Of a DNA stretch of 40,320 bases, positions 1,478 through 40,320 are shown one piece after another. Source of the stretch: a virus; UHGV virus genome UHGV-1432856, one strand, 5' to 3'. The notes beneath the pieces were generated by a model that saw nothing but the letters and a program-made list of their open reading frames with translations, was not told the origin of the DNA and searched no databases. The position numbers and the translations under genes were made by a program. Position 1 is the first letter of the stretch. Each line of letters begins with the position of its first letter.

Positions 1478-1537
1478 TCCTCACGCTCCAGAAACGACAA
1501 AACCGCCCTGAGGCGGTTTCACACAAAACATTCTGCA

Positions 1538-2850: not shown

Positions 2851-2855
2851 GGGAT

Positions 2856-3554
2856 TTACTGCGAAAGTTTGTTAATGGAAAGGAAGCCGCCAAAGTTGCC
2901 GACGTTATTGCGAAACTTACAGCCACTCAGGCATTTGCTGCATTTATCCTTCGTGATATCGGACGTCGGCTGGTCATATTCATCCGCGACAGCCGGACCA
3001 TGATAACCGCACTCATCACCGCGATAGGTCCAGGTGCAGGTGTTGGCCAGCATGATGCGCCCCGGAAAAACAGCACCATCCGTTTCCGTCGGTGTGGAGA
3101 GCACAAAGGAGGCACTGACCGCACTCAGTTCGCTGCACTGCTCGATGCGCCAGCGGCTGATCACCTCCTGCTCCGGATCGGCGTCGCTGTTTCCGTTGAC
3201 GAAGTTCACCGCATCCAGAAAACGGGCGTAAACCTTACGCCTGACCACCGTTCCGCCGACCAGACTCTGCAGGTCTTCCGCCATCCCGGTGACCATGCCG
3301 TGCAGGTTAGAGACCGTCAGTGTCGGACGGGCAGCACTGCCCTTACCGTTCAGTTCAAATCCCGTCCCCTGAATGGGGTATGCCTGATACTGCCGCCCCT
3401 GCCAGGTGACCGGCTCACCTTTTTCGTTCTGCTCATTACAGAAAAAATAACGTTCTCCACCAACCTCTGTCAGATCGATTTCCCAGAGCACCACGCAGGC
3501 AGACTGCTCCGCACGGGTGCATTCATTCAGTGTTTCCTGCCGGATATCCTGCAT
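2856..3554 (-). CDS. L: minor tail protein L
   Basis: 232 aa, MQDIRQETLNECTRAEQSA...KCSKCLSGCKFRNNVGNFGGFLSINKLSQ matches lambda gpL as recalled, including the C-terminal Cys cluster. Confidence 0.9.
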   Translation of the reverse strand: MQDIRQETLNECTRAEQSACVVLWEIDLTEVGGERYFFCNEQNEKGEPVTWQGRQYQAYPIQGTGFELNGKGSAARPTLTVSNLHGMVTGMAEDLQSLVGGTVVRRKVYARFLDAVNFVNGNSDADPEQEVISRWRIEQCSELSAVSASFVLSTPTETDGAVFPGRIMLANTCTWTYRGDECGYHGPAVADEYDQPTSDITKDKCSKCLSGCKFRNNVGNFGGFLSINKLSQ

Positions 3555-3883
3555 CAGTTCACCACCTGTTCAAACTCTGCGCTGAACTCAACACGTAACA
3601 TACTGACCCGCGACGACCATTTTGCGCAGGTCACCTTTATCTGCCTGTAACCATAAGGCGGCGTCCACAGAAAGCCCTTCCAGCCCCCGTGCTCAGCCAG
3701 AAACGACTCCAGCGCTGTTGCCTCCTCGCGGGAGACAGAAAGCGTCACGCTGTACGTTTTCAGGTTGGCATTCAGCCCGGCAGGCGCTCGCTGGGAATAG
3801 CCATCACCAAAGCGCACCTTTCTTACAGAAGGGGCCGAAGCCACATCCATACCGGGTTTCACTTTCCAGCGGAAGGTTTTCAT
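3554..3883 (-). CDS. M: minor tail protein M
   Basis: 109 aa, MKTFRWKVKPGMDVASAPSVRKVRFGDGYSQRAPAGLNANLKTYSVTLS... matches lambda gpM; start overlaps H stop. Confidence 0.9.
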   Translation of the reverse strand: MKTFRWKVKPGMDVASAPSVRKVRFGDGYSQRAPAGLNANLKTYSVTLSVSREEATALESFLAEHGGWKGFLWTPPYGYRQIKVTCAKWSSRVSMLRVEFSAEFEQVVN

Positions 3884-6441
3884 CGTCCACCTCCGGAGAA
3901 CAGGCCACCATCACGCATCTGTGTCTGAATTTCATCACGGGCACCCTTGCGGGCCATGTCATACACCGCCTTCAGAGCAGCCGGACCTATCTGCCCGTTC
4001 GTGCCGTCGTTGTTAATCACCACATGGTTATTCTGCTCAAACGTCCCGGACGCCTGCGACCGGCTGTCAGCCAGACTGCCCGGTGTACCGACATAACCAC
4101 CGGTGGCATAGCCGCGCATCAGCCGGTAGAGATTCCCCACGCCAATCCGGCTGGTTGCCTCCTTCGTGAAGACAAATTCACCACGGTGAACAATCCCCGC
4201 TGGCTCATATTTGCCGCCGGTTCCTGTGAATCCTCCGGTTGCAAAATGGAATTTCGCCGCAGCGGCCTGAATGGCTGTACCGCCTGACGCGGATGCGCCG
4301 CCACCAACAGCCCCGCCAATGGCGCTGCCGATACTCCCGACAATCCCCACCATTGCCTGCTTAAGCAGAATTTCTGTCATCATGGACAGCACGGAACGGG
4401 TGAAGCTGCGCCAGTTCTGCTCACTGCCGGTCAGCATCGCTGCCATATTCTGTGCAATACCATCAAAGGTCTGCGTGGCTGCACTTTTTACCTGCGACAT
4501 ACTGTCCGTGGCGCTCTCTTCCCACTCACTCCAGCCGGACTTCAGGCCTGCCATCCAGCTCCCGCGAAGCTGGTCTTCAGCCGCCCAAGTCTTTTTCTGC
4601 TCTGACATGACGTTATTCAGCGCCAGCGGATTATCGCCATACTGTTCCTTCAGGCGCTGTTCCGTGGCTTCCCGTTCTGCCTGCCGGTCAGTCAGCCCCC
4701 GGCTTTTCGCATCAATGGCGGCCCGTTTTGCCCGTTGCTGCTGTGCGAATTTATCCGCCTGCTGCGCCAGCGCGTTCAGGCGCTCCTGATACGTAACCTT
4801 GTCGCCAAGTGCAGCCAGCTGGCGTTTGTACTCCAGCGTCTCATCTTTATGCGCCAGCAGGGATTTCTCCTGTGCAGACAGCTGGCGACGTTGCGCCGCC
4901 TCCTCCAGTACCGCGAACTGACTCTCCGCCTTCCACAAATCCCGGCGCTGCTGGCTGATTTTCTCATTTGCTCCGGCATGCTTCTCCAGCGTCCGGAGTT
5001 CTGCCTGAAGCGTCAGCAGGGCAGCATGAGCACTGTCTTCCTGACGATCGCCCGCAGACACCTTCACGCCGGACTGTTTCGGCTTTTTCAGCGTCGCTTC
5101 ATAATCCTTTTTCGCCGCCGCCATCAGCGTGTTGTAATCCGCCTGCAGGATTTTCCCGTCTTTCAGTGCCTTGTTCAGTTCTTCCTGACGGGCGGTATAT
5201 TTCTCCAGCGGCGTCTGCAGCCGTTCGTAAGCCTTCTGCGCCTCTTCGGTATATTTCAGCCGTGACGCTTCGGTATCGCTCTGCTGCTGCGCATTTTTGT
5301 CCTGTTGAGTCTGCTGCTCAGCCTTCTTTCGGGCGGCTTCAAGCGCAAGACGGGCCTTTTCACGATCATCCCAGTAACGCGCCCGCGCTTCATCGTTAAC
5401 AAAATAATCATCCTTGCGCAGATTCCAGATGTCGTCTGCTTTCTTAAACGCAGCCTCTGCCTTAATCAGCATCTCCTGCGCGGTATCAGGACGACCAATA
5501 TCCAGCACCGCATCCCACATGGATTTGAAGGCCCGCGCTGTCCTGTCTGCCCAGGTCTCCAGCGTGCCCATGTTCTCTTTCAGGCGGCGGGTCTGGTCAT
5601 CAAACCCTTTCGTTGCGGCCTCGTTCGCCGCCTGCAATGCCCCGGCTTCATCGCCGGAACGCTGCAACTGAGCAACATACGCAATCTGCTCCGCCGTCAC
5701 GTTATGGAACTGGCGTGCCATCGCTGTCAGCCCTGACGTCGGGTCTGTGGTCAGCTTCCCGAAGGCTTCAGCGACCTTGTCCACCTCCACGCCGGATGCA
5801 GAAGAGAAACGCGCCACACTCTGGCTGATGGACGCAATCTGAGCCTCACCGCTTACCCCCGCCTTAACCAGTGCACTGAGTGACTCGCTGGTCTGGTTAA
5901 ACGTCAGCCCTGCCGCCTGCCCGGCTCTGGACAGGACCAGCATACGATCTGCCGTCAGACCCGACTGATTACCGGAAAGGACCAGCGTTTTGTTGAAATC
6001 GGACAGGGTTGAGTCACCCTGATACCAGGCATACGCCAGCGCACCGGTCGCCACCGCCAGCGAGGTGGCCCCGACCATCGGCAGGGTGATCGCACCGGCA
6101 AGCCCCCGGAACATGGGGATCATCCCGCCGAAGGAGTCCTTAACCTGACCACCCTGTTGCAGCAGGATCAGCCACGGGCTTTGCCCGCCTGCAAGCTGCG
6201 TGGCCACGTCGGTGAACTGTGCAGGCAGCATACGCATGGCGGCTTTATACTGCCCGACGGAAATCCCCGCTTTCTGTGCAGCCAGCGCCTGTCGGCTCAG
6301 CGACTTTTCAACGACTGCCGCTGTTTTTTTCGCATCAGTTTCCGTGCCGGAAAAATGACGCCTGACTCTGGCCATCTGCTCGTCAAATCTGGCCGCATCC
6401 AGACTTAAATCAACGACCAGATCGCCTACCGGTTCAGCCAT
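3880..6441 (-). CDS. H: tail tape measure protein H
   Basis: 853 aa, the same length as lambda gpH; coiled-coil-rich centre and glycine-rich hydrophobic C-terminal segment; 8-nt overlap with the upstream T frame as in lambda. Confidence 0.95.
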   Translation of the reverse strand: MAEPVGDLVVDLSLDAARFDEQMARVRRHFSGTETDAKKTAAVVEKSLSRQALAAQKAGISVGQYKAAMRMLPAQFTDVATQLAGGQSPWLILLQQGGQVKDSFGGMIPMFRGLAGAITLPMVGATSLAVATGALAYAWYQGDSTLSDFNKTLVLSGNQSGLTADRMLVLSRAGQAAGLTFNQTSESLSALVKAGVSGEAQIASISQSVARFSSASGVEVDKVAEAFGKLTTDPTSGLTAMARQFHNVTAEQIAYVAQLQRSGDEAGALQAANEAATKGFDDQTRRLKENMGTLETWADRTARAFKSMWDAVLDIGRPDTAQEMLIKAEAAFKKADDIWNLRKDDYFVNDEARARYWDDREKARLALEAARKKAEQQTQQDKNAQQQSDTEASRLKYTEEAQKAYERLQTPLEKYTARQEELNKALKDGKILQADYNTLMAAAKKDYEATLKKPKQSGVKVSAGDRQEDSAHAALLTLQAELRTLEKHAGANEKISQQRRDLWKAESQFAVLEEAAQRRQLSAQEKSLLAHKDETLEYKRQLAALGDKVTYQERLNALAQQADKFAQQQRAKRAAIDAKSRGLTDRQAEREATEQRLKEQYGDNPLALNNVMSEQKKTWAAEDQLRGSWMAGLKSGWSEWEESATDSMSQVKSAATQTFDGIAQNMAAMLTGSEQNWRSFTRSVLSMMTEILLKQAMVGIVGSIGSAIGGAVGGGASASGGTAIQAAAAKFHFATGGFTGTGGKYEPAGIVHRGEFVFTKEATSRIGVGNLYRLMRGYATGGYVGTPGSLADSRSQASGTFEQNNHVVINNDGTNGQIGPAALKAVYDMARKGARDEIQTQMRDGGLFSGGGR

Positions 6442-6670
6442 ACCGGACTCCTCCTGCGATCCCTTCTGATACTGTCATCAGCATTACGTCATCCTCCGTC
6501 ATGTCCGCCACATCCGGGGAAGCGGGGATAACTTCTTTCCCATCCGGGCCAAAACGAACGCCTCCGGCAAGCCCTGCTGCTTTCTGCATCAGCACATCAT
6601 CTTCAGGCTCTTCGTCAGCCTCGCGCCGGTTCAGCAGACTGAAATCCAGCGGATGCATATCCGGATCGCT
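6434..6670 (-). pseudogene. T: 3' fragment of the T segment of the G-T tail assembly chaperone; 5' part and gene G missing
   Basis: Frame ends exactly 8 nt inside the H start, as lambda T does; the frame stays open only to 6721, and composition turns AT-rich above about 6670; where G, V and U should follow there are Mu-like genes instead. Confidence 0.55.
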
Positions 6671-6680
6671 GAAAAACAGG

Positions 6681-6814
<134 letters not shown>

Positions 6815-11861: not shown

Positions 11862-13631
11862 TCAGTTGCCGTTAACAATGCTGATAACACTGCTGCTGGC
11901 CGGTGTGGTCAGCGTGGCCATGACTTCATCCAGTGCGGCTTCCGGTACGCCGTCCGGGTACTGTGCCGTTAACTGGCGGTAATGTTCCGGCGTCCAGGTA
12001 AGGCCGTCGGCGCTGAACTTATCGCGCAGGGCTTTCGCGGCCTCCACATGAGTCATGGGACGTTGTTCAGTGCGCGGCCCGCGTACGTCAGAGGCCTGAC
12101 CACGCTTCGGCATATAGGCCGGAAGTGTGGTGTCGTCGATATGTTTATACGGGTCAAGCCGCCCGCCGAACGGCAGCGCCTTCGCCTTGCGTGCGGCGGC
12201 TGCATCTGCGGCGTTGTCTGTACCGGTAACCAGCGCTTCGGTTTCTTTTGCCGCCATCTGTGCCGGGGTTTCCGGCAGGGCTTTGTAACTTTCGCCAAAT
12301 ACCGCCGCGCCTTCAGCAAAGCCAAACTCGTTCTTTCTGACCTCTTCGACCAGGAAGAACGTCTCGTGGCCGTCCTCACCGGTCAGAACCACCTGTGCCA
12401 CATCGCTGCGCCATGGGTTACGGGTAATCATCAGTTTTTCACCAACCAGTACGCCCGGTACCGTTGATACGTCAAATTCAGTGCCCCGGAACGAGACACG
12501 AAGTTTTGGCGTGACTTTGCGGAGTTCTGGTGCCGCCACAGCCAGTTCATGACATACCTCAACGGAAGGCGCTTTTTTCAGCTGCTCAGCAGTAATCTTC
12601 AGCCAGATATCCGTGCGGGTTTTACCGTGGCGGCTGTGAACAGCCGTGGCGTTAAAGTGGCTGCGCCATTTCGCGGCCAGCGCGTTGAGTTCTTCCAGAC
12701 TGTGAACCGGCCGGAACTTCAGACCCGGCTCCAGCTTGCGTTCGATAATGTCTCGCGCCTTTTCCACCTGTCCGGTGGCGCGGGCGTTATGCGGCTTGTG
12801 CGCTATCAGGTCGATGCCCAGTGAGCGGCACATGTTTTTCGTCATACCCGCGGTGTTTGCCGAGCCGGGGTCGAGATAGAGTATTTTTGGCACGCCGTGC
12901 AGCACGTCTGCGCCGCCACGCTCCTGCATGGCGTTGATAAGCACAGAACACAGGTTCTCACCTGATTCCGCGCCCGTCACATACTCAACGTAAATCCAGC
13001 CGCTGGCATGGTCGGTAATCTCGTAACTCCACACGCGGTCACTGGCGATACGGGCAAGGTTAGCGGGCTTGTTCTTGTAGAACTTCGCGCTGTCCATCAC
13101 CTGCAGCCCTTTATGTCCATTGCTCAGGTAGTAAAGCGTGCAGAGTGAGGCGTCAATCTGCCAGACATGATTGGGGTGCAGACTGGCCACTTCGGTATGC
13201 GGTGCAGGAGCATCCAGTTGTTCCGGGTGCAGGCCATAGTTACGCAGAGCACGGCTGATGGCATCTTCAGACAACGGGAAAAACTCACCGGTGGTTTCAT
13301 CTGTTCTGCCTGCGGTGATAAAGCCGTTAGCCCGCAGGGTTTCCACTGCATCTGCGATGGAATAGAGGCGCTTACCGTTCTTGCGGGTGGCCTCACGCAG
13401 TGTGGCAGATATCAGCGCGGCTTCGTCGCGGGTCAGGGCGCTGCGTCCGGCATCAGCGCGTTTTTTGCGTTTATCAGTCACAGAGACCTCCTTCAGCCTG
13501 CGCAGCAGAGTGGCGCGGGACATGCCAAGTTCAGCACAGGCAGCGTCGTATATTGCACCGCGTTTACCATGCCCCGCGTCACGTGCCGCGCGGGCGACAT
13601 AAACCAGTCGTTCAGTCAGGGCAGCATTCAT
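11862..13631 (-). CDS. A: DDE transposase (phage A-type, integrase-core fold)
   Basis: 589 aa; candidate catalytic triad HVWQIDAS / YLDPGSAN / GQVEKA (D, D, E); paired with the B ATPase. Confidence 0.85.
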   Translation of the reverse strand: MNAALTERLVYVARAARDAGHGKRGAIYDAACAELGMSRATLLRRLKEVSVTDKRKKRADAGRSALTRDEAALISATLREATRKNGKRLYSIADAVETLRANGFITAGRTDETTGEFFPLSEDAISRALRNYGLHPEQLDAPAPHTEVASLHPNHVWQIDASLCTLYYLSNGHKGLQVMDSAKFYKNKPANLARIASDRVWSYEITDHASGWIYVEYVTGAESGENLCSVLINAMQERGGADVLHGVPKILYLDPGSANTAGMTKNMCRSLGIDLIAHKPHNARATGQVEKARDIIERKLEPGLKFRPVHSLEELNALAAKWRSHFNATAVHSRHGKTRTDIWLKITAEQLKKAPSVEVCHELAVAAPELRKVTPKLRVSFRGTEFDVSTVPGVLVGEKLMITRNPWRSDVAQVVLTGEDGHETFFLVEEVRKNEFGFAEGAAVFGESYKALPETPAQMAAKETEALVTGTDNAADAAAARKAKALPFGGRLDPYKHIDDTTLPAYMPKRGQASDVRGPRTEQRPMTHVEAAKALRDKFSADGLTWTPEHYRQLTAQYPDGVPEAALDEVMATLTTPASSSVISIVNGN

Positions 13632-28735: not shown

Positions 28736-28986
28736 TGAAAGAATACCGCTATTCCGGCCCGGCCAGCGGCGTCACGCTGTCGGACGGAACCGAAATCCTG
28801 CTCTGGCCGGGGAAGACGGTTTCCCTGCCGGAGGAGCATGACTACGTGAAGGTACTGGTGGCGCTGAAACATCTGACGCCGGTACCTGAAGAGACTAAAC
28901 CCGCCGGCACACCGGCTGTGCAGTCACCAAAGCGCAGAAGCAGCAGTGACAGCGAAGTGAAAACGGAGGACACCCATGGCAGCTAA
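28732..28986 (+). CDS. Mu gp38-like small protein
   Basis: 84 aa; overlaps neighbours; synteny. Confidence 0.45.
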   Translation: MMKEYRYSGPASGVTLSDGTEILLWPGKTVSLPEEHDYVKVLVALKHLTPVPEETKPAGTPAVQSPKRRSSSDSEVKTEDTHGS

Positions 28987-30403
28987 CTATCTGCATGGTC
29001 CCGAAACCATTGAGGTGGAAAACGGAGCCCGCCCGGTTAAAACGGTGAAATCTGCCGTTATTGGCCTGATTGGTACCGCCCCGATGGGGGATGTCAATAC
29101 GCTGGTACAGTGCCTGTCTGAGAAAGACGCAGCGGCATTTGGCAGCCAGTTCACCGGCTTTACCATTCCGCAGGCGCTGGATGCGATTTATGACCATGGT
29201 GCAGGTACCGTTCTGGTCATTAACGTCCTCGACCCGGCGAAACATAAAACGGCGATCGAGGATGAGGTGGTTACCTTTGACAAATCGACAGGGCAGGCCA
29301 GACTGGCGCATCCGGTTGTCGCTAATGTGGTGGTGAAAAACAGTGAAGGCAGCACCACCCACACGGCGAACACGGACTACCGTGTTGATGCGCAGGCGGG
29401 TGTGCTCACGAACCTGGGCAAGGCTATTGAGGCCGGTGGCAGCGTGAAGGTGAGCTATGAGTACGCGGACCCGTCGAAGGTGACTGCGGCGGACATCATC
29501 GGCGGGGTGAATAGCGCCGGAAACCGAACTGGCATGAAGCTGCTTAACGACAGCTTCAACCTGTACGGCTATTTCGCCAAAATTCTGATTGCGCCGGTGT
29601 TCTGCACCCAGAAGAGTGTCGCAGTTGAGCTTATCGCCATGGCAGAGAAGCTGGGCGCGGTAACCTACATTGATGCGCCTGTCGGTACCACCTTTGCACA
29701 GGCTCTGGCAGGTCGTGGCCCGGAAGGCACCATCAACTTCAATACCAGCTCCGACCGCGTCCGTCTGTGCTATCCGCATGTGAAGGTATATGACCCGGTG
29801 ACAAACACAGAGCGTCTGGAGCCGCTCAGCCAGCGTGCAGCAGGTCTGCGTGCCAGAGTCGATCTGGACAAGGGCTACTGGTGGTCATCCTCCAATCAGG
29901 AGATTCTGGGGATCACCGGCGTGGAGCGCCAGCTGTCCGCGATGATTGATGACCCGCAGAGTGAGGTGAACCTGCTTAACGAACAGGGGATCACCACGGT
30001 ATTCAGCAGTTACGGCAGCGGCCTTCGTCTGTGGGGTAACCGGACGGCAGCATGGCCAACGGTCACCCATATGCGTAACTTTGAGAACGTTCGCCGCACC
30101 GGTGATGTGATCAACGAGTCCATTCGTTATTTCAGCCAGCAGTACATCGACATGCCGATTACTCAGGCGCTGATTGATGCACTGACGGAGTCGGTCAACG
30201 CCTACGGTCGCAAAATGACTGGTGATGGTGCGGTACTGGGCTTCCGTTGCTGGTTTGATCCGGCCCGCAATCCGGAGACGGAGCTGGCCGCCGGGCACCT
30301 GTTGCTGAGCTACAAATATACGCCACCACCGCCGCTGGAGCGACTGACGTTTGAGACTGAGATCACCTCGGAATACCTGTTAACCCTGAAAGGGGGCAAC
30401 TGA
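28976..30403 (+). CDS. contractile tail sheath protein (Mu L-like)
   Basis: 475 aa; immediately followed by the tube gene. Confidence 0.85.
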   Translation: MAANYLHGPETIEVENGARPVKTVKSAVIGLIGTAPMGDVNTLVQCLSEKDAAAFGSQFTGFTIPQALDAIYDHGAGTVLVINVLDPAKHKTAIEDEVVTFDKSTGQARLAHPVVANVVVKNSEGSTTHTANTDYRVDAQAGVLTNLGKAIEAGGSVKVSYEYADPSKVTAADIIGGVNSAGNRTGMKLLNDSFNLYGYFAKILIAPVFCTQKSVAVELIAMAEKLGAVTYIDAPVGTTFAQALAGRGPEGTINFNTSSDRVRLCYPHVKVYDPVTNTERLEPLSQRAAGLRARVDLDKGYWWSSSNQEILGITGVERQLSAMIDDPQSEVNLLNEQGITTVFSSYGSGLRLWGNRTAAWPTVTHMRNFENVRRTGDVINESIRYFSQQYIDMPITQALIDALTESVNAYGRKMTGDGAVLGFRCWFDPARNPETELAAGHLLLSYKYTPPPPLERLTFETEITSEYLLTLKGGN

Positions 30404-30924
30404 TGTCAAAGATTGAGATAAACCGCATCACGAATGCCAACATCTATCTGGATGGTACTAACCTGCTGGGACGGGCTGAGGAAGTTAAACTCCCCGATGT
30501 CTCCATGATTATGCAGGAACACAAGGCGCTGGAGATGGTGGGTAAGGTGGAACTCCCGGCTGGTTTTGACAAACTGGAAGGCGAAATCAAATGGAACAGC
30601 TTTTACCGCGATGCGATGCTGTCTGCCGCGAACCCGTACAGGTCGCTGGCACTGCAGTGTCGTTCCAGCGTCCAGCGCTACAGCTCGCAGGGGCTGATTG
30701 ACGAAATCCCGCTGGTCACCTTCCTGACGATTATGTTCAAGAAGAACCCGCTGGGGACGTTCAAACAGCACGAGAACGCCGAGTTCTCCAGTAGCTTCAC
30801 CTGCACGTATATCAGACAGGTACTGGATGGTGAAGAGCTGCTGCAACTGGACTATCTGGCCAACATCTTCCGGGTCGGCGGTGTTGATCAACTGACTGAC
30901 TACCGTATCAATATCGGGGGCTGA
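30403..30924 (+). CDS. tail tube protein (Mu M-like)
   Basis: 173 aa; ATGA-type overlap with the sheath gene. Confidence 0.8.
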   Translation: MSKIEINRITNANIYLDGTNLLGRAEEVKLPDVSMIMQEHKALEMVGKVELPAGFDKLEGEIKWNSFYRDAMLSAANPYRSLALQCRSSVQRYSSQGLIDEIPLVTFLTIMFKKNPLGTFKQHENAEFSSSFTCTYIRQVLDGEELLQLDYLANIFRVGGVDQLTDYRINIGG

Positions 30925-31305: not shown

Positions 31306-31641
31306 ATGTCACAGACCCCATCCGATACTTTTAAATTGTCTTATCCCTTCACCACTGCTGCAGGCACCAGAATTGAGCTGGTTGAACTGAAACGCCTGAC
31401 GGTAAAAGACCTGAAGCAGGTGCGCAAAATCAGCAAAAACCCGGCAGACTGGGACGAACCGCTGATTGCCCGCAGTACTGGTCTTCTCCCGGAAGATCTC
31501 GACAATATGGATCTGGCTGATTACCTGCAGTTACAGAAACGATTTCAGCTCATCACGGGGATGGGTGAGAGCAACCAGGGCGCTGACGCAGGCGCAGGGG
31601 CTGCTGGCGAGATGGTTCCGGTTTCAGCCGGGGGAGATTGA
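31306..31641 (+). CDS. tail assembly chaperone (upstream of the tape measure)
   Basis: 111 aa acidic protein between tube and tape measure genes; GGAG RBS. Confidence 0.6.
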   Translation: MSQTPSDTFKLSYPFTTAAGTRIELVELKRLTVKDLKQVRKISKNPADWDEPLIARSTGLLPEDLDNMDLADYLQLQKRFQLITGMGESNQGADAGAGAAGEMVPVSAGGD

Positions 31642-31723
31642 TGCCCTCGATACTGACGATCTGGAGATGTGGCTGGAGCAGGCTGAAGAGCAAATAAAAA
31701 GCGAGTACGGCGACAAATCATAG
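31466..31723 (+). CDS. overlapping +1-frame ORF, possible frameshift extension of the tail chaperone
   Basis: Second ORF overlaps the 3' part of the chaperone gene in the +1 frame and runs 82 nt past its stop; a G5 run lies at 31630-31634. Confidence 0.35.
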   Translation: MPAVLVFSRKISTIWIWLITCSYRNDFSSSRGWVRATRALTQAQGLLARWFRFQPGEIDALDTDDLEMWLEQAEEQIKSEYGDKS

Positions 31724-31798
31724 TACAGACAGCCGCCAGTAGCGGCTGTTCTGCGTTATCCCCTCACGTCTTTTCACCTTCCCCGGAGGTTAACCACT

Positions 31799-34750
31799 AT
31801 GTCGGGACAGTTTTCAGTCGGCGTTGTTATCGGCGGGATGATTGGTAGCACATTCCGTTCTGCAATGAGCGGTACCCGCCGTGCGCTTGATTCCCTGAGC
31901 GATACCTCACGCCGCCTGCAGGAACGTCAGAACGCTTTAACCCGTGCAACAGAACGTTATGGTCAACTGGGTTCTTCCCGGATGCAGCATCTCAACAGCG
32001 AGCTGCTGCGGGTAAGCCGCACCATGGAGCAAATTGAGCGCCAGCAGCGCCGTCTGTCAGCGGCATCCGCTACCAGTGATGCGCTGAAAGCTAACCGCAT
32101 GGCGCTGTATGGTCAGGGGATTGAAGCGTATGGCATGGCACAGACTGTTTATCATACGGTTTCCCCTGCCGTTCAGCAGTCCATGTCTTTTCAGGACAAA
32201 ATGATTGATATGTCGATCACCGCAAAATATGACAATAAAACGCGGGATGCACTTGCCGGACAGATAAAAGGCTGGGCGCTTAAATACAATCAGTATCAGG
32301 ATGAGCTGCAGGAGGCGGTGGGTTCACTCATCAGCGACAATATTGATAATGTGTCAGATATCGGTTTTCTGATGCCGGATATTGCCCGCGCGGCAACGGC
32401 AACACGCACGTCTGCTCAGGACTGGGCAAAAGTGGCCGCAGTCTGGCAAAACTCCCTGAAAGGTGCGGCCAGAGATTTTGGTGCCGTTCAGAATATTATG
32501 GCTTATGCCGGTGACCAGGGGTCATTTGAAATCCCGGATCAGGTCAAGTGGATGCAGTCCCTGGCCCCAATGATGGCGGGTATTGCCAGTGGAAAAGAGG
32601 CTGTTGCTGAAATCGGGGCCAGTCTCCAGATAGCAAAAATCGGTGCAGGTTCCACCGACGAAGCAGCCAATAATTTTAAAAACTTTCTTACCAAAATTTT
32701 TGCCCGCGATACTCAGAAACAGTTTGCTGATCTGGGTATTGATTTGCAGGGATCTATTGCGAGTTATAAAGCTGCGGGGATCTCTCCGATTGAAGGGATG
32801 TTGAGTGTTATAGAACGTTACCTCAATGCCAAAAGCCCCGAAGCGCTGGCCGGCTTCAAATCAGCCATGAAAATAAAGAATGATACGGCAAGAGATGAGG
32901 CACTTCAGGCTCTGGCGAAAAACTTTGGTCTGGGCGATATGTTCGCGGATATGCAGGTCATGGCATTTATCCGCCCGATGCTGGCCAACATGGACAGATA
33001 TCGAGAGATCCGTGCCGGTGCTCTCAGGGCTGCGGATAACGATTTGCTTGCCAGTGCTTATGATCAGCGGCTGAAATCTCCCCTTGAAGCCACTAAAGCA
33101 CTTATGGTCAGCAGTCGTGATCTGGCAATTACGCTGGGCGATCAATTAGCTCCATCTTTTATTTCTCTGACTCAGGAACTGCTTCCACTCATTCAGGGGG
33201 CAAAACACTGGGTAGCGACTCACCCGCAATTTGTCAGTGGGGCTTTTAAGCTCATCAGTGCGCTCCTTGCGATTAAGATAGCGACTGTTGGTCTCAAACT
33301 GGGGCTGAATCTCCTTATTTCCCCCTTTGTAAGTGTCTGGAAAAATGCTGTTTTACTTCGGGCCAACTGGCTTCGTCTGTCGCTCGCACTGGGGCAAGGC
33401 GGTAAGCTCCGCTGGCTGGTGACCGGATTTAGCGCCGTCGCCAAAGGAGCCAGAACACTGAGTGGCGTGCTCTCCGGGGGGCTGGTTCGCGGAATTATGC
33501 TCGCCGGACGTGCTGTTCTCTGGATTGGACGTGCGCTGATGATGAATCCCATCGGTCTCGTTATCACCGCTGTCGCGGCAGCAGCTTACCTTATCTACCG
33601 CAACTGGGGGGCAGTCAGTGGCTGGTTTAAACAGCGCTGGGCAGACATTCAGGAAGCCTTTAACGGCGGCATTGTGGGAATTGGTAAGTTGCTGATTAAC
33701 TGGTCGCCGGCAGGCCTGCTCTATAAAGCCTTTGCGGCTGCGCTGAAATATTTCGGCGTTGCTCTGCCGGCAAAGTTCACCGACTTCGGTGGCCATCTTA
33801 TCGACGGTCTGATTAACGGTATCAAAAACAAATGGGGGTCGCTCAAATCCAGTGTAACCGGAATGGGTGACAGCATCAGTAGCTGGTTTAAACAGTGCTG
33901 GGCTGACATTCAGGAAGCCTTTAACGGCGGTATCGCGGGAACTGGTAAGCTGCTGATTAACTGGTCGCCGGCAGGTCTGCTCTATAAAGCCTTTGCAGCT
34001 GCGCTGAAATATCTTGGTGTTGATCTGCCGGCAAAGTTCACCGACTTCGGTGGCCATCTTGTCGACGGTCTGATTAACGGTATCAAAAACAAATGGGAGT
34101 CGCTCAAATCCAGTGTAACCGGAATGGGTGACAGCATCAGTGGCTGGTTCAGCGAAAAGCTGGGCATTCATTCGCCGAGCCGCGTGTTTATGGGCTTTGG
34201 TGACAATATCGCGCAGGGGGCCGCCATTGGCCTGCAGCGGACCACTCCGCTTGCAGCTCTGGCCGGGCAGCGAATGGCCAGTGAACTGCTCCCCAAAATG
34301 CCCGTGAGCATTCAGGGGCCAGAAATACGGGATAACACTTCAGGTGTTCGCTTCAGTATGCCGTTGCCCGATATCAATGGGTTTATGTCGTCTGCTAAAA
34401 ATGCGATCGGAGCCGTAATCAATAGTTTGTCTTCCATGCCCGCTATTCCGCTCTCCACCCGGGCATCGATTTTACCAGGGCAACGTCTGGCAAATGAGAT
34501 GACACCGGATGTTCCCCGTATCCCCTCGCCTGAAATCCTGGCTGCCGGATATTCAGGCCGTGGTGCAGCTGCAACCGGCGGTGGAACGTCTGGTGGTATC
34601 CAGGTCAGCTTTAATCCTCAGTTTTTCCTCAATGGCAGGGAAACCACAGCGCCTGCCGGACTGACTGGCGCCCTGAATATGAGCCTGCATGAGCTGGAAA
34701 AAATGCTGGAGCGTCTGCTGGCTCAGAAACAACGTAAGGAGTACCGCTGA
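31799..34750 (+). CDS. tail tape measure protein
   Basis: 983 aa, helical and repeat-rich; between the chaperone and N-like gene; GGAGG RBS. Confidence 0.85.
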   Translation: MSGQFSVGVVIGGMIGSTFRSAMSGTRRALDSLSDTSRRLQERQNALTRATERYGQLGSSRMQHLNSELLRVSRTMEQIERQQRRLSAASATSDALKANRMALYGQGIEAYGMAQTVYHTVSPAVQQSMSFQDKMIDMSITAKYDNKTRDALAGQIKGWALKYNQYQDELQEAVGSLISDNIDNVSDIGFLMPDIARAATATRTSAQDWAKVAAVWQNSLKGAARDFGAVQNIMAYAGDQGSFEIPDQVKWMQSLAPMMAGIASGKEAVAEIGASLQIAKIGAGSTDEAANNFKNFLTKIFARDTQKQFADLGIDLQGSIASYKAAGISPIEGMLSVIERYLNAKSPEALAGFKSAMKIKNDTARDEALQALAKNFGLGDMFADMQVMAFIRPMLANMDRYREIRAGALRAADNDLLASAYDQRLKSPLEATKALMVSSRDLAITLGDQLAPSFISLTQELLPLIQGAKHWVATHPQFVSGAFKLISALLAIKIATVGLKLGLNLLISPFVSVWKNAVLLRANWLRLSLALGQGGKLRWLVTGFSAVAKGARTLSGVLSGGLVRGIMLAGRAVLWIGRALMMNPIGLVITAVAAAAYLIYRNWGAVSGWFKQRWADIQEAFNGGIVGIGKLLINWSPAGLLYKAFAAALKYFGVALPAKFTDFGGHLIDGLINGIKNKWGSLKSSVTGMGDSISSWFKQCWADIQEAFNGGIAGTGKLLINWSPAGLLYKAFAAALKYLGVDLPAKFTDFGGHLVDGLINGIKNKWESLKSSVTGMGDSISGWFSEKLGIHSPSRVFMGFGDNIAQGAAIGLQRTTPLAALAGQRMASELLPKMPVSIQGPEIRDNTSGVRFSMPLPDINGFMSSAKNAIGAVINSLSSMPAIPLSTRASILPGQRLANEMTPDVPRIPSPEILAAGYSGRGAAATGGGTSGGIQVSFNPQFFLNGRETTAPAGLTGALNMSLHELEKMLERLLAQKQRKEYR
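33613..34134 (+). repeat. in-frame tandem duplication, 2 x 261 bp, inside the tape measure gene
   Basis: SGWFKQRWADIQEAFNGGI...GIKNKWGSLKSSVTGMGDSIS repeated with few substitutions at an exact 261-nt offset (33622 versus 33883). Confidence 0.8.
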
Positions 34751-35634
34751 TGTTTGCCGTACTGGGTGATATTGAGTTTGAGCTGATTACCTACTGGGAC
34801 GGCTTCGAGGCCACGTTCGGCGTCGATTATGCGGAGCATGCCCGCATCGGGGGTAAGCCTGGCCTGCAGTTCGTCGGCGACAGGCTGGACGAAATCCAGA
34901 TAACTCTGGTTTTCCATCAGCATTATTGTGTACCCGATGTGGAGCTGGCGAGACTGCGAACAGCCATGAAAGCCCATCAGGCACTGGCGCTGGTCTTCGG
35001 CAACGGTGACTATCGTGGCTGGTTCGTGATTACCGATGTGACCGCAACCAGCGAGCAGACAGACAGCACCGGTAACGTGCTGGCTGTCAGTGCCACCGTG
35101 TCTCTCCGGGAATACACCGGTGATCCGAAAAATCCTCTGCAACCACCGGCAATACGCACGAAGCTCCCGGGTGTCGGGGCGGTCTCCGGTGCCATTCCTT
35201 CACCTTCAGGGGTGGCGCAGTTCATCCGCAACGGCGTCAACTATGCGAAACAGGCGCAGTCTGTACTCCAGACCACTATCAGCGCCGTTCGGGTGACACA
35301 GAAAATGAAGGATAACCCCGTTGTCGCACTGACCCGTGTGCCGGGGCTGATGAGCGGACTGGGTAATATCTCCGGGGCTCTGGGGAAAAGTGTTCCGGCG
35401 TTTAACGCACTCTCTGAATCCATGCCCGATGCCATCAGTCTGGCCAGAACAGCCAGCGAAGCAGCCACGTATGTACAGCAGGCACAGTCTGCGCTGAGTG
35501 GTGTGGACAAAAGAAATATTGCAGGTGCTCTGGATACCGTTTCCGGGCAGCTTAACGCCGCCGGCACAGCATTCAACCGCATGTCTCCGGGATTAAGTGC
35601 AATGGCCGCCAGAATACTGACGAGGAGTGTGTGA
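34750..35634 (+). CDS. DNA circularisation protein (Mu N-like)
   Basis: 294 aa; directly downstream of the tape measure gene as in Mu; N-terminus MFAVLGDIEFELITYWDGFE fits the N family as recalled. Confidence 0.75.
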   Translation: MFAVLGDIEFELITYWDGFEATFGVDYAEHARIGGKPGLQFVGDRLDEIQITLVFHQHYCVPDVELARLRTAMKAHQALALVFGNGDYRGWFVITDVTATSEQTDSTGNVLAVSATVSLREYTGDPKNPLQPPAIRTKLPGVGAVSGAIPSPSGVAQFIRNGVNYAKQAQSVLQTTISAVRVTQKMKDNPVVALTRVPGLMSGLGNISGALGKSVPAFNALSESMPDAISLARTASEAATYVQQAQSALSGVDKRNIAGALDTVSGQLNAAGTAFNRMSPGLSAMAARILTRSV

Positions 35635-35846
35635 TGTTTCTTGAACATGTTACCCGTGACGGAGAGCGCTGGGATTCGCTGGCATGGCAGTACTACGGTG
35701 ACCCGCTGGGCTATCCCCGGATTATTGCCGCCAATCCGCACGTGGCCATCACGCCGGTGCTGCCCTCCGGGCTGTTGTTACTGATCCCGGTGATTGAGAC
35801 TGAAGAAGCCCGTACAGAAGAGGATATTGCCCCATGGCTGAGATAA
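35631..35846 (+). CDS. small tail protein (tail protein X-like)
   Basis: 71 aa; overlaps both neighbours; short conserved-looking N-terminal region. Confidence 0.45.
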   Translation: MMFLEHVTRDGERWDSLAWQYYGDPLGYPRIIAANPHVAITPVLPSGLLLLIPVIETEEARTEEDIAPWLR

Positions 35847-36988
35847 ACAGCACTGCGCAAGTCACATCAGCGTTAACCGGCGTCAGCGATGTGCTGACAC
35901 CGGTGTTCACTCTGTGGTATCTGCAGAAAAACATCACCTCTGATATCGCGCCTTATGTCACCCGTGTGACCTGGAGCGATAACATCAAAAATGAGTCCGA
36001 TACCATTGAGGTGGAGCTGGACGACACCGATGGCCGCTGGCTGGATAAGTGGTATCCGGGCAAGGGTGACACGCTGACGCTGAAAATGGGCTATCAGGGC
36101 GAGAAGCTGCTGTCCTGCGGTACGTTCTCTATAGACGAGATCGAAGTGAGTTCGCCCGCTTCCGTTGTTTCTATCCGTGGGGTGGCCACCTCGGTTAACA
36201 GTGCTCTGCGGACTAAATCCAGCCGTGGTTTTGAGAACACCACGCTGGCAGCTGTTGCGGGGCGGATTGCCAGAAAGCACCGGCTGAAACTGGTGGGCAG
36301 CATTGAGTCCATCAGAATCGACCGGGTGACCCAGTATGCTGAAACCGACGTGGGTTTTCTGCGCCGGCTGGCCAGCGAGTATGGTTATGCAGTGAAAGTG
36401 GTCAGTGACCAGCTGATTTTTTCTCATCTGGCCACACTGCGCAGTCAGGAGACGGTCAGGCAGTTAAAACCGCAGGATGTGGCCCGCTTTTCCCTGCGTG
36501 ACACCATCAACCGGGTCTATAAATCTGCAAAGGTAAAACACCAGAAAAGCAGCAGTAAAAAACTGATCGTCCACGAAGCTGATGGTGGTACCCGTGAAAG
36601 CGACAAAAAGCTCAAAGGTGGTAAGGTTACCAGCGCTGACTCACTTAAAGTTAACAGCCGCGTCAGCGACCCGGACAGTGCCCGGATTAAAGCGGATTCA
36701 GCACTGGCCAGACATAACGAATACCAGCAGAACGGCTCCCTGACGCTGACGGGAACACCTCAACTGACAGCAGGCAACAAAATTGAACTGGTGGGTTTTG
36801 GGCAGTTATCCGGGCCATGGCTCATAACCACTGCCCGCCATGCGTTTGACCGTAACAGCGGCTACACCACAGAGCTGGAAGTGGCACGGGGGCCAGTCAC
36901 AAGAGGGAAAAAACAAAAAACTCAGAAACTCACGGTTTATCACCCGGATGGCAGTACATCGACGGTGATTAAGGAGAAGAAAAAATGA
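35834..36988 (+). CDS. baseplate hub protein (Mu P / late control D family)
   Basis: 384 aa; position before the gpV-like spike gene. Confidence 0.7.
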   Translation: MAEINSTAQVTSALTGVSDVLTPVFTLWYLQKNITSDIAPYVTRVTWSDNIKNESDTIEVELDDTDGRWLDKWYPGKGDTLTLKMGYQGEKLLSCGTFSIDEIEVSSPASVVSIRGVATSVNSALRTKSSRGFENTTLAAVAGRIARKHRLKLVGSIESIRIDRVTQYAETDVGFLRRLASEYGYAVKVVSDQLIFSHLATLRSQETVRQLKPQDVARFSLRDTINRVYKSAKVKHQKSSSKKLIVHEADGGTRESDKKLKGGKVTSADSLKVNSRVSDPDSARIKADSALARHNEYQQNGSLTLTGTPQLTAGNKIELVGFGQLSGPWLITTARHAFDRNSGYTTELEVARGPVTRGKKQKTQKLTVYHPDGSTSTVIKEKKK

Positions 36989-37581
36989 CTGGTGTCACTC
37001 GTCAGGTCGGTACGGTCAGTGCCGTTGATGCCGACAGGGTTCAGGCCCGCGTTCGTCTGCCTGAATGCGATAACCTGCGCACAAACTGGCTTAACGTGCT
37101 GCAGCGTAATACCCAGGATAACAAAGATTACTGGCTCCCTGACGTGGGGGAGCAGGTTGAGGTGCTGCTCGATGCCAACGGCGAGGATGGTGTTATTCTG
37201 GGCGCGGTGTATTCAGACGTCGATAAACCACCGTTCAGTGACAAAAATATCCGGGGAACCCGGTTTGCTGATGGTGCAGAGTACAGCTACAACCGGAAGA
37301 CGCACACTCTGACCATCCGGGGCGGCATTGAGCATATTGTCATTGAGTGTGGTGCTGATGTGGTATTGAAAACACAGAAAGCCACGATTGACGCACCGGA
37401 AACCGAACTTACCGGAGATCTGCGTGTCAGGGGAAAGCTGATTTACGAAGGAGGCATGGCGGGTTCTGGTGGTAAAGGTGTTACCGCGACCATCCATGGC
37501 AATATCGAGATTAAAGGGAATGCCCATGCCACGGGCAGTATGCTGTCTGATGGCGAAAACTCCAGCCACCACTCCCACTGA
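36985..37581 (+). CDS. baseplate spike protein (gpV-like)
   Basis: 198 aa; N-terminal OB-like region, Gly-rich C-terminus; synteny. Confidence 0.7.
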   Translation: MTGVTRQVGTVSAVDADRVQARVRLPECDNLRTNWLNVLQRNTQDNKDYWLPDVGEQVEVLLDANGEDGVILGAVYSDVDKPPFSDKNIRGTRFADGAEYSYNRKTHTLTIRGGIEHIVIECGADVVLKTQKATIDAPETELTGDLRVRGKLIYEGGMAGSGGKGVTATIHGNIEIKGNAHATGSMLSDGENSSHHSH

Positions 37582-37582
37582 G

Positions 37583-37604
37583 CTTCTTAAACGCCTTTAA
37601 TATC
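37583..37604 (+). promoter_or_regulatory. conserved late-region motif CTTCTTAA-N3-CCTTTAATATC (copy 2)
   Basis: 19 of 22 nt identical to 31232-31253; about 30 nt upstream of the ATG at 37636; followed by GGGGGC-AATACT-GCCCCC hairpin. Confidence 0.4.
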
Positions 37605-37635
37605 AGCGTTCCCGCACGGGGGCAATACTGCCCCC

Positions 37636-37983
37636 ATGAAAACGACCTCAGTATTCTGGCAACCAGCCCTGCAGGCTCCCGGCGAAATTGTCCGGGGGCT
37701 GGATGATATCCGGCAGGCGATTCAAATTATCCTGCGGACTCCCCGCGGCAGCGACCCGCATCGCCCGGAGTTCGGCAGCAATCTGCATCTTTATATCGAC
37801 TGGCCTGTAGACCGGGCCATTCCGCATGTGGTGCGCGAATCCGTCGATGCCATCCGGCGCTGGGAGCCCCGCTGCCAGCTTATGTCAGTTAAACCCGCCG
37901 TCGACGGCGAACATCTTACGCTCCGGGTGAGCTGGAAAGGCTCAGACGGACAGACCCGGACTCAGGAGCTGCTATGGCGCTGA
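37636..37983 (+). CDS. baseplate protein, GPW/gp25 lysozyme-like family
   Basis: 115 aa; size and position typical of GPW/gp25 between spike and J-like genes. Confidence 0.65.
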   Translation: MKTTSVFWQPALQAPGEIVRGLDDIRQAIQIILRTPRGSDPHRPEFGSNLHLYIDWPVDRAIPHVVRESVDAIRRWEPRCQLMSVKPAVDGEHLTLRVSWKGSDGQTRTQELLWR

Positions 37984-39650: not shown

Positions 39651-40320
39651 ATGGGAAACCTGAATGAAACAGAAAAGTGGGAAGAAAATATCTATCAACT
39701 GGAGACATCAGATCCGGTTCTGGGTGGTGCAGACGGGATATCAAATCGAGCCCCCCGGCAACTGGCAAACAGGACGAAATGGCTGAAGAAGAAAACGGAG
39801 GAAGCCGCACAGTCACTGGCTGAACACGTACGTTCCCGTAACCACCCGGACGCGACACTGACAGCTAAGGGGTTCACCCAACTGAGCAGTGCCACCAACA
39901 GCACCTCTGAAACGCTGGCCGCCACACCAAAAGCGGTCAAGGCTGCATACGACCTGGCAGCCGGCAAGGCGCCTGCCAGCCACACTCACCCGTGGAGTCA
40001 GATAACGGGAGTGCCTGCGGCTTCACTGACGGCAAAAGGCACCGTACAACTGAGCAGCGCCACGGACAGTCAATCAGAAACTGAGGCTGCCACGCCGAAG
40101 GCGGTCAAGGCTGCATACGACCTGGCAGCCGGCAAGGCGCCCGTCAGCCACACTCACCCGTGGAGTCAGATAACGGGAGTGCCAGCTGCCTCGCTGACGG
40201 CAAAAGGCACCGTACAACTGAGCAGTGCCATCAACAGCACGTCTGAAATACTGGCCGCCACACCGAAAGCGGTCAAGGCTGCATACGACCTGGCAGCCGG
40301 CAAGGCGCCTGCCAGCCACA
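39651..40320 (+). CDS. tail fibre protein, N-terminal part (3' end beyond window)
   Basis: ATG at 39651; translation MGNLNETEKWEENIYQLETSDPVLGGADGIS... then repeated 56-aa units; the minus-strand ORFs here are antisense artefacts. Confidence 0.75.
   Translation, partial: MGNLNETEKWEENIYQLETSDPVLGGADGISNRAPRQLANRTKWLKKKTEEAAQSLAEHVRSRNHPDATLTAKGFTQLSSATNSTSETLAATPKAVKAAYDLAAGKAPASHTHPWSQITGVPAASLTAKGTVQLSSATDSQSETEAATPKAVKAAYDLAAGKAPVSHTHPWSQITGVPAASLTAKGTVQLSSAINSTSEILAATPKAVKAAYDLAAGKAPASH
39861..40320 (+). repeat. 168-bp (56-codon) tandem repeat inside the tail fibre gene, at least 2.7 copies in window
   Basis: GGCTGCATAC recurs at 39941, 40109 and 40277 (exact 168-nt period); unit TAKG(F/T)(T/V)QLSSA...TPKAVKAAYDLAAGKAP.SHTHPWSQITGVPAASL. 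Confidence 0.8.

Follow-up and report, generated by a model that had tools for sequence, protein, structure and literature searches.

Tape measure gene and tail operon

The window, that is, the whole stretch of 40,320 nucleotides of the virus genome UHGV-1432856 that was analysed, encodes an rve transposase, an AAA_22 ATPase, Mor, GemA and a P2-like tail. Judged from this gene content (a DDE transposase, a MuB-like ATPase, Mor/GemA, a Mu-type head and a P2-type contractile tail), the host element is a BcepMu-like transposable, contractile-tailed prophage of E. coli. The gene order agrees with that of Escherichia phage PhiKM, which is classified as Bcepmuvirus, and the tape measure genes of the two are 96.6% identical. 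Of the complete E. coli genomes, about 12% carry the prophage, ST131-type ones among them.

The tail genes lie on the plus strand. The genes for the tail sheath (28976-30403) and the tail tube (30403-30924), the polymers whose length the tape measure protein is thought to set, are followed by a gpE-like tail assembly chaperone of PF10109 (31306-31723), whose relatives are annotated as "phage tail assembly protein" and "GpE family" and which includes an overlapping ORF (31466-31723) at the place where a chaperone frameshift extension would be expected. The tape measure gene (31799-34750) comes next and homologues of P2 GpU and GPD follow it, which is the operon position of a tape measure gene. 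Its product of 983 aa matches PF10145 with 74 bits (cut-off 33.2), TIGR01760 with 58.9 bits (cut-off 28.8) and PHROG tape measure families, and the gene is 100% identical to annotated tape measure protein genes in the complete genomes AVS0225 and AVS0655.

Within this gene, a Kyte-Doolittle scan detected hydrophobic, membrane-segment-like stretches (33230-33607, plus strand; aa 478-514 and 579-603), which are strongly conserved in an alignment with the outgroup and immediately precede a tandem repeat. After the last repeat unit, a conserved motif LGIHSPSRVF (34160-34189, plus strand) is found here and in distant tape measure proteins.

The tandem repeat

Tandem Repeats Finder (TRF) reported a repeat at 33615-34149 with a period of 261, 2.0 copies, 93% matches, 0 indels and a score of 958, and 261 bp was the only period that it detected. 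A base-by-base self-comparison at an offset of 261 gave near-continuous identity over 33615-33888 and background level outside. A chance match is excluded for 261 bp at 93.5% identity in 40 kb, and the repeat is genuine. Since the period is divisible by three and the repeat lies inside the single ORF, it is in frame, and the in-frame tandem duplication of 87 codons described in the initial annotation is borne out by TRF, the ORF and the family models. The codon-aligned units lie head to tail on the plus strand at 33614-33874 (copy 1, aa 606-692) and 33875-34135 (copy 2, aa 693-779). The repeat had been placed at 33613-34134, which is the right location with a register off by one base, within the ambiguity of the border sequence described below. 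The two copies are near-identical, as had been stated, with somewhat more than "only a few" substitutions: 17 of the 261 nucleotides and 9 of the 87 amino acids differ. We use these 17 nucleotides as diagnostic sites, copy 1 defining state 1 and copy 2 state 2. Judged by pS of 0.134 and pN of 0.045 (pN/pS 0.33), both copies are under purifying selection.

A 13-bp box lies at each border on the plus strand. The box TCAGTGGCTGGTT, encoding S-G-W-F, is found at the start of copy 1 (33615-33627); TCAGTAGCTGGTT, with one mismatch to it, lies at the junction of the two copies (33876-33888); and TCAGTGGCTGGTT stands again directly past copy 2 (34137-34149), at the end point of the repeat. The box is also present at both unit borders of a single-unit outgroup with 11 of 13 matches, and it was likely the microhomology behind the original duplication.

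On the minus strand, an ORF of 272 aa (33353-34171) runs across the repeat. Its stop-free frame has 328 codons with two units and 415 with three, and it is broken in the one-copy allele as well as the outgroups. We agree with the earlier judgement that this ORF is spurious, for one-copy and outgroup alleles do not conserve it; the duplication lengthens a stop-free antisense stretch by 87 codons and did not create it.

Copy-number alleles in related prophages

The tape measure lengths of related prophages were compared, as the initial annotation had proposed, and the homologues group at 896, 983 and 1070 aa, which correspond to exactly one, two and three units. For the allele counts, two evenly spaced samples of 60 were drawn from the matching complete genomes and the record spans were used; the sampled genomes are clonally biased, with many ST131-type records. 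One sample, taken from 634 matching genomes, gave 39 alleles with two units, 14 with three and 2 with one, the rest being 4 outgroup alleles with a single unit and 1 truncated gene; in the other sample, 41 of 60 had the two-unit span. By these samples, two units are the majority state, in about two thirds of the approximately 630 complete E. coli genomes with the gene. Counting alleles by coverage of at least 80% of one-unit, three-unit and synthetic four-unit queries was rejected, since overlapping pieces were joined and the counts did not discriminate.

The alleles differ by little else. Strains MLI121 and EcPF7 are examples of the one-unit class, B20123 and AR_0015 of the three-unit class. 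The three-unit gene of B20123 is 100% identical to the window gene outside the extra unit, and two- and three-unit alleles are flanked by identical sheath, tube and gpU protein accessions. Neither the 120 best protein matches nor the sample of 60 from the 634 genomes contained a four-unit allele, and none was among the top results obtained with the synthetic four-unit query; the longest of the 120 best matches has 1070 aa, apart from one variant of 1084 aa with an insertion. A rare four-unit allele may exist in a divergent lineage.

Repeats of this length trouble short-read assemblers, and the repeat does disrupt assemblies, as had been predicted: the PhiKM record has a gap of 100 N within it and its CDS is split. 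It could accordingly be supposed that assembly created the duplication in the window and that the real gene is single-copy, the outcome that had been named as refuting the duplication. This is almost certainly wrong. The 17 differences between the copies mean that they are not a duplicated pile-up of reads, the identical gene of 2952 bp occurs in the independent complete genomes AVS0225 and AVS0655, two units are the majority in both samples, and the protein collection holds at least 43 distinct cluster representatives of 983 aa.

The copy-number differences might instead reflect neutral decay in defective, non-inducible prophages, with no consequence for the virion. Cryptic prophages are common in E. 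coli, the completeness of this one cannot be shown from a window that breaks off within the tail fibre gene, and PGAP calls several three-unit genes and one two-unit gene pseudogenes. Translation contradicts the three-unit labels, however: every gene examined, whether of one, two or three units, is an uninterrupted ORF, and all changes are whole units in frame. Purifying selection on the copies, the open head, tail, lysis and transposition ORFs in the window, and the presence of a closely similar gene in PhiKM, which was deposited as an isolated phage, also speak against decay, which we regard as very unlikely.

Recombination between the copies

The diagnostic sites of the other alleles point to the way in which they arose. 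One-unit genes read 1111111111/2222222 (the slash marks the breakpoint), and the middle unit of three-unit genes reads 22222222/111111111 or 222222222/11111111. At the protein level, at least three breakpoints were found in each of the two classes. A probe specific to the 1/2 junction detected the one-unit junction at 100% identity in 11 independent complete genomes. Its 110-bp counterpart for the 2/1 junction was discarded as a count of three-unit alleles: it matched 400 genomes at 99% or more and is unspecific because copy 1 of the ST131 type itself carries a copy-2-like patch, which hints at gene conversion.

Near-identical genes thus differ by whole units, with 1/2 chimeras in contracted alleles and 2/1 chimeras in added units, and these junctions indicate that the one- and three-unit alleles were made from the two-unit allele by unequal homologous crossover, for which a strong dependence on RecA or phage recombinases is predicted. 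Natural one- and three-copy recombinants bear out the suspected recombinational instability of the repeat. Close single-copy relatives, which had served as the baseline for a longer tail, turn out to be not the ancestral form: their chimeric units, copy 1 at the 5' side and copy 2 at the 3' side, mark them as collapse products. Some short-read one-unit records could be artefactual, because collapse by an assembler yields the same chimeric signature as crossover. A phase-variation or on/off role was rejected because whole units come and go in frame and the ORF stays intact in every allele, and for the repeat in this tape measure gene there is nothing to suggest that switching is programmed or selected.

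Age and distribution of the unit

The initial annotation had called the duplication recent. This did not hold: prophage lineages that differ by pS of 0.083 in the rest of the gene share both copies as orthologues, and the copies themselves differ by more (pS 0.134). A more distant lineage, with proteins of 821-825 aa, has a single unit that lies equally far from copy 1 and copy 2 (28/28 and 33/32 nucleotides) and in which copy 1 and copy 2 states alternate at the diagnostic sites; alone among the single-unit relatives, it looks like the pre-duplication state.

We found the module in 557 representative proteins, with one to five matched stretches each and differing periods, and both lineage-specific and older duplications of it are seen in distant tape measure proteins. 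The duplicated segment in this region differs by lineage (76, 87, 72 and 42 aa). Hundreds of distant tape measure proteins share the unit at 40-55% identity, with an almost invariant core NWSPxGLxYKAF...FG(V/I)xLP.

The following history is proposed. An ancestor would have had one 87-codon unit flanked by a short direct repeat coding for S-x-W-F, and a single duplication, probably by misalignment at the 13-bp microhomology, would have given two copies that then drifted to the present identity under purifying selection. Copy number is still changing: since the copies have kept a length of 261 bp and an identity of 93.5%, unequal crossover between them repeatedly turns the gene for 983 aa into one for 896 or 1070 aa, with occasional gene conversion patches alongside.

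Tail length and other roles of the unit

We consider it probable that the repeat is a heritable module of variable copy number, changed by unequal crossover, with a ruler-type effect on tail length. The tape measure protein would lie extended in the tail tube and polymerisation of tube and sheath would halt at its length; if so, each unit would add about 13 nm, and the alleles would form a stepwise series of tail lengths with the remaining tail proteins identical. The rings of contractile tails have a rise of about 4 nm, and a unit would correspond to roughly three tube and sheath rings. The estimate of about 13 nm is drawn by analogy from other phages, namely TP901-1, in which a tail of 118 nm is set by about 810 length-determining residues (PMC5099701), and KS10, with a tail of 140 nm and a tape measure protein of 811 aa (PMC2628397).

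Alternatively, with repeat and variation still real, the units may not measure length but form a functional domain, for instance one that contacts membrane or tube, for use while the tail is assembled or DNA is injected; the number of copies would then adjust its activity or be near neutral, and tail length would change little or non-proportionally. The conservation of the unit and its near-invariant core in hundreds of distant proteins, the predicted membrane-like segments directly before it and several Gly-rich breaks within it, which could permit fold-back, are in favour of such a domain, and in TP901-1 some regions of the tape measure protein serve infection, not assembly (PMC5099701). The duplicated lengths, on the other hand, suit a length-tolerant ruler better than a fixed domain, and a single-sequence AlphaFold2 model of aa 526-834, used for its secondary structure as weak evidence, is nearly all helix at low confidence (mean pLDDT 43.7). 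In every experimentally tested tape measure protein, internal in-frame deletions and duplications gave roughly proportional tails (TP901-1 in PMC5099701; lambda and T4 as cited in PMC13585406), and the proportionality in TP901-1 held for a deletion in the first hydrophobic region (PMC5099701). We therefore hold the domain explanation to be rather unlikely. A PDB sequence search gave no significant match (the one lead, 9m8o chain M "Gp14", three chains, E 0.18, aligned over the unit region), and an NCBIfam search gave no model covering the repeat unit alone.

The ruler-type reading leaves room for a further role of the unit, which it may have, because its conservation exceeds the need of a pure spacer and the hydrophobic segments adjoin it. 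A broader proposal is that the module is a conserved cassette interacting with the tube lumen or membrane, and that recombination maintains a selected, quantised polymorphism of tail length, at about three rings per unit, in a widespread E. coli prophage, the one of ST131 included. We think this proposal unlikely. If it were true, selection might act, for example, to match the thickness of capsule or O-antigen or to evade defences aimed at tape measure proteins, and the recurrent amplification with different periods would be convergent use of one evolvable "length cassette" by contractile-tailed phages.

Comparison with known systems and significance

Variable-number tandem repeats of 11 aa have been described in tape measure proteins (Belcaid, Bergeron and Poisson 2011, PMC3271669). 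Like these, the present units are in frame and in tandem, and their copy number, which varies by duplication and loss, is taken to alter tail length. The present unit differs in having 87 aa instead of 11, in crossover junctions that are directly visible and in belonging to a contractile-tailed, Mu-like transposable prophage. The 11-residue (or 11-11-18) periodicity of aromatic residues (Trp/Phe) that marks the 11-aa class was absent here by autocorrelation (lag 11, z 0.1-0.6; lag 7 weak, z up to 2.6). According to a 2026 survey, myovirus tape measure proteins are typically without tandem repeats (PMC13585406), and Mahony 2016 suggested that repeats ease natural duplication and deletion in tape measure genes (PMC5099701).

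Long near-identical in-frame units, whole-unit alleles and chimeric junction units are likewise found at VNTR-like loci in genes for bacterial surface proteins, which unequal homologous recombination maintains and in which the product is a surface antigen and not, as here, a ruler protein of the virion. Engineered duplications and deletions of tape measure genes in lambda (gpH), T4 (gp29) and TP901-1 were reportedly made by Katsura and Hendrix in 1984, Abuladze in 1994 and Pedersen in 2000, and are also covered by Mahony 2016 (PMC5099701). As in those constructs, an internal in-frame segment is added or removed here, and with it protein length changes; in the constructs the tail changed in rough proportion. 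Unlike the laboratory constructs, for which tails were measured, the series of one, two and three units is natural and widespread. The BcepMu-like and Mu-like Burkholderia phages such as KS10 share the virus type, the layout of the tail operon and a comparable tail length per residue (PMC2628397), and the literature searched describes no copy-number polymorphism of the module in them. The same search gave no paper on PhiKM and no prior account of the present polymorphism. A change of unit number would be a natural but not unprecedented route to altered tail length and an ordinary kind of feature.

In practice, the repeat breaks or collapses assemblies, and the NCBI pipeline mislabels intact three-unit genes as pseudogenes. 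The ruler model is in textbooks, yet it is based on few engineered phages, mostly with non-contractile tails. The natural series, in which at least one pair of alleles shows no other difference within the gene and the sheath and tube proteins are identical, makes the model testable in a Mu-like myovirus without genetic engineering, and it would also allow us to test whether tail length changes in steps of whole rings and whether infectivity depends on it.

Repeat structure and host element

For this part of the window, Tandem Repeats Finder gave a single strong array (33615-34149; period 261, 2.0 copies, 93% matches, score 958, 0 indels), and in a base-by-base comparison at an offset of 261 identity was almost unbroken over 33615-33888 and at background level elsewhere. 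The period is divisible by three and the array lies within a plus-strand ORF of 983 codons (31799-34750) that contains both units, so that the in-frame tandem duplication described in the initial annotation is confirmed by repeat detection, offset comparison and reading frame alike. The codon-aligned units are copy 1 (33614-33874) and copy 2 (33875-34135), both on the plus strand. The span first proposed, 33613-34134, located the repeat in a register off by one base, an ambiguity caused by the recurrence at the unit borders of a 13-bp box, TCAGTGGCTGGTT, which starts at 33615, at 33876 (one mismatch) and at 34137, directly past copy 2. The copies had been said to differ by only a few substitutions; with 17 nucleotide and 9 amino acid differences (93.5% identity) they are more divergent than that. 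Hydrophobic, membrane-like segments flank the unit on one side and a conserved LGIHSPSRVF motif on the other.

Two further repeats were observed. A 71-aa segment of the window lineage (aa 823-893; 34265-34477), missing from a distant single-unit lineage with proteins of 821-825 aa, opens with GQRMASELLPKMPVSIQGPEI, similar to the sequence after it, GQRLANEMTPDVPRIPSPEI, and may be an older, degenerate second tandem duplication in the tape measure gene. A tandem repeat of 168 bp (56 codons; at least 2.6 copies, 86% match) occupies 39879-40320 inside a tail fibre gene, which starts at 39651 and runs beyond the window end.

The 983-codon ORF matches PF10145 (74 bits, cut-off 33.2), TIGR01760 (58.9 bits, cut-off 28.8) and PHROG tape measure families. 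Genes for tail sheath, tail tube and a gpE-type chaperone lie upstream and P2 gpU-, gpX- and gpD-like genes downstream, while an rve-family transposase, an AAA ATPase, GemA and Mor are encoded upstream on the opposite strand. Identity to the counterpart in Escherichia phage PhiKM, a classified Bcepmuvirus, is 96.6%, and gene order is the same in both. Tape measure identity, tail-operon neighbours, transposition genes and likeness to PhiKM together indicate that the host element is a BcepMu-like transposable E. coli prophage with a contractile tail. Over 1538-6441 (minus strand) and about 6441-6700, the window also holds a second, unrelated tape measure gene (lambda gpH-type, 853 aa, TMP_2 and Tape_meas_lam_C domains) and, after it, homologues of lambda M, L, K and I, every one of these on the minus strand. 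The genes expected upstream of gpH (G/T, V and others) are absent, and from about 6843 Mor and GemA of the Mu-like prophage begin. Apparently the transposable prophage has inserted at about 6690 into the tail operon of a lambdoid prophage. In genome AVS0225 (31673-37793 of the extracted locus), the prophage region adjoins, at its far end, a recombinase gene and irp2 (yersiniabactin HMWP2), annotated without its N-terminus, and the yersiniabactin island may have been disrupted there by the transposable phage region.

Copy-number classes in related genomes

The 2952-bp gene has matches in 636 of 5426 complete E. coli genomes. Compared across related prophages, as the initial annotation had proposed, tape measure lengths are sharply classed: among the matches listed, at least 43 cluster representatives have 983 aa, at least 26 have 896 aa and at least 17 have 1070 aa, and a unit profile finds exactly two, one and three units in these, respectively. 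Allele counts from record spans in an evenly spaced 60 of 634 matching complete genomes, which clonal sampling skews through the many two-unit records of ST131 type, gave 39 two-unit, 14 three-unit and 2 one-unit alleles, 4 members of the divergent single-unit lineage and 1 truncated gene; a second 60-genome sample agrees. No four-unit allele was found in the best 120 protein matches, the 60-genome sample or the top matches of a search with a synthetic four-unit sequence. On translation, ORFs are intact in all copy-number classes. An assembly artefact, raised as a possible refutation, fails against the prevalence of the two-unit allele and its 100% identity in the complete genomes of AVS0225 and AVS0655; the duplication is neither an artefact nor private to the window.

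Mechanism and age

The 17 nucleotide sites separating copy 1 from copy 2 were scored in relatives. The one-unit allele (MLI121, L4_E1441) has copy-1 states at the first ten sites and copy-2 states at the last seven. In three-unit genes an intact copy 1 and an intact copy 2 sandwich a chimeric middle unit, which has copy-2 states at the first eight sites and copy-1 states at the other nine in B20123 and A1.S1.65, and nine followed by eight in AHB1. These chimeras of opposite polarity are the reciprocal products to be expected when copy 1 and copy 2 undergo one unequal homologous crossover. At the protein level (120 homologues) each class has several distinct breakpoints, which implies repeated independent events. 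The B20123 allele with three units matches the window at 100% identity for 1815 nt before and 600 nt after the repeat, so that its expansion is very recent. Collapse of the repeat by an assembler would likewise yield the one-unit chimera; however, 11 complete genomes of differing origin share its junction at 100% identity and its unit has three private substitutions, so that this is an inherited allele. Unequal crossover is thus well supported as the mechanism of copy-number change. Copy 1 of some lineages, ST131-type among them, has a short copy-2-like patch: in P0051, P0040 and similar homologues it carries the copy-2 A and T at unit sites 20 and 22, two adjacent diagnostic sites, within flanks that stay copy-1-like. 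This patch accounts for the 400 genomes matched at 99% or more by a 110-bp "chimeric" probe, and suggests short-patch gene conversion between the copies as well. The repeat is a real, heritable and dynamically variable feature.

The initial annotation called the duplication recent. The copies differ by pS 0.134 and pN 0.045 (ratio 0.33), both being under purifying selection, whereas the N-terminal 605 codons of lineages that share orthologous copies 1 and 2 show pS 0.083 against the window; the duplication is therefore older than the diversification of this prophage group. The 821-825-aa lineage, which includes E. coli GABEEC10 and IAL7250 and a record named Klebsiella phage KP12, has one unit that is equally far from both copies (28/28 and 33/32 nt). 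Copy-1 and copy-2 states alternate along its diagnostic sites, a pattern that a single crossover cannot produce, and we read this lineage as the pre-duplication state. Its unit is already bordered by the S-x-W-F-coding 13-bp box (11 of 13 bases matching), and the founding duplication could plausibly have used this box as microhomology. The KP12 record (OM835952, "Klebsiella phage KP12 clone KP12_2") is classed in Vequintavirinae yet has this BcepMu/P2-type tail module, with about 86% identity across part of the tape measure gene, which is more in keeping with a prophage fragment that was co-assembled than with the lytic phage that the record names.

The module in distant proteins

A search of 1.84 billion representative proteins with the 87-aa unit found 557 at E <= 0.001, with 1 to 5 matched stretches each. 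Among the best 150 of these, complete sequences mostly have 750-1500 aa, the remainder being shorter and apparently partial, and a repeat period of 76 aa is common, along with 87, 72, 83, about 105 and 42 aa. Copies within P0122, P0123, P0133 and P0144 are each other's closest relatives, and those of P0127 and P0138 are orthologous between the two proteins. The varied periods and the mixture of lineage-specific and orthologous copies indicate that the region has been amplified in tandem many times, at differing ages and with differing boundaries. The unit core, NWSPxGLxYKAF...FGVxLP, is strongly conserved. Residues 559-782 (33473-34144), which take in the hydrophobic segments and the repeat, gave a non-significant though suggestive match (E 0.18) to "Gp14" (PDB 9m8o chain M; 674 aa, three chains in the solved structure), with motifs including YRNW, W-x-P and DG-x-NG-x-K-x-W in common; Gp14 may be a resolved tape measure protein, which could then reveal the unit fold.

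Effects on annotation and assembly

The antisense ORF at 33353-34171 (minus strand) is present and, as had been suspected, spurious, since its stop-free frame tracks copy number (328 codons at two units, 415 at three) and is broken in one-unit and outgroup alleles. The warning that the repeat may collapse in assemblies is borne out by the PhiKM record (PQ738613), with 100 Ns within the repeat (13436-13535) and a split CDS, "disrupted by sequencing gap"; in the unit preceding the gap, states of both copies are already mixed. In three extracted loci (L004, L005 and L006; each 1501-4713), NCBI PGAP calls the three-unit genes pseudogenes ("incomplete; partial in the middle of a contig") or breaks them in two. 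All three translate as an unbroken 1070-aa ORF, and these calls look like an annotation artefact of the extra unit. The two-unit gene of E. coli H105 (locus 301-3253; 2953 bp), annotated "frameshifted", exceeds the window gene by one base, either through a real inactivating indel or because the consensus of an older long-read assembly is in error.

Tail length and significance

Tape measure genes with variable tandem units that evolve by duplication and loss are already known (PMC3271669), and Mahony et al. proposed that repeats ease natural length change (PMC5099701). The class of Belcaid et al. has an 11-residue aromatic periodicity, which is absent from the present unit, where the heptad signal is only weak. 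According to a 2026 survey, tandem repeats are typically absent from myovirus tape measure proteins (PMC13585406). The present case adds to this known kind a population-level copy-number polymorphism of a long, 87-aa unit in a Mu-like myovirus prophage, with crossover junctions visible; our literature search found no earlier description of this polymorphism.

Tail length follows tape measure length in TP901-1, where 810 residues correspond to about 118 nm (PMC5099701). In KS10, a transposable Mu-like phage of Burkholderia that has been compared with BcepMu, the protein has 811 aa and the tail measures about 140 nm (PMC2628397). It is plausible that every unit adds tail length: at 1.5-1.7 Å per residue, 87 residues would correspond to 13-15 nm. 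The ring rise in contractile tails is about 4 nm, and each unit would thus add about three rings. An AlphaFold2 single-sequence model is nearly all helix at low confidence (pLDDT 44). Because the unit is so highly conserved, a rival reading is open in which it would serve as a functional domain, beyond simply adding length. Identical accessions of sheath, tube and gpU proteins occur beside two-unit and three-unit alleles, and the allelic series offers a clean natural system for testing, not a new principle.
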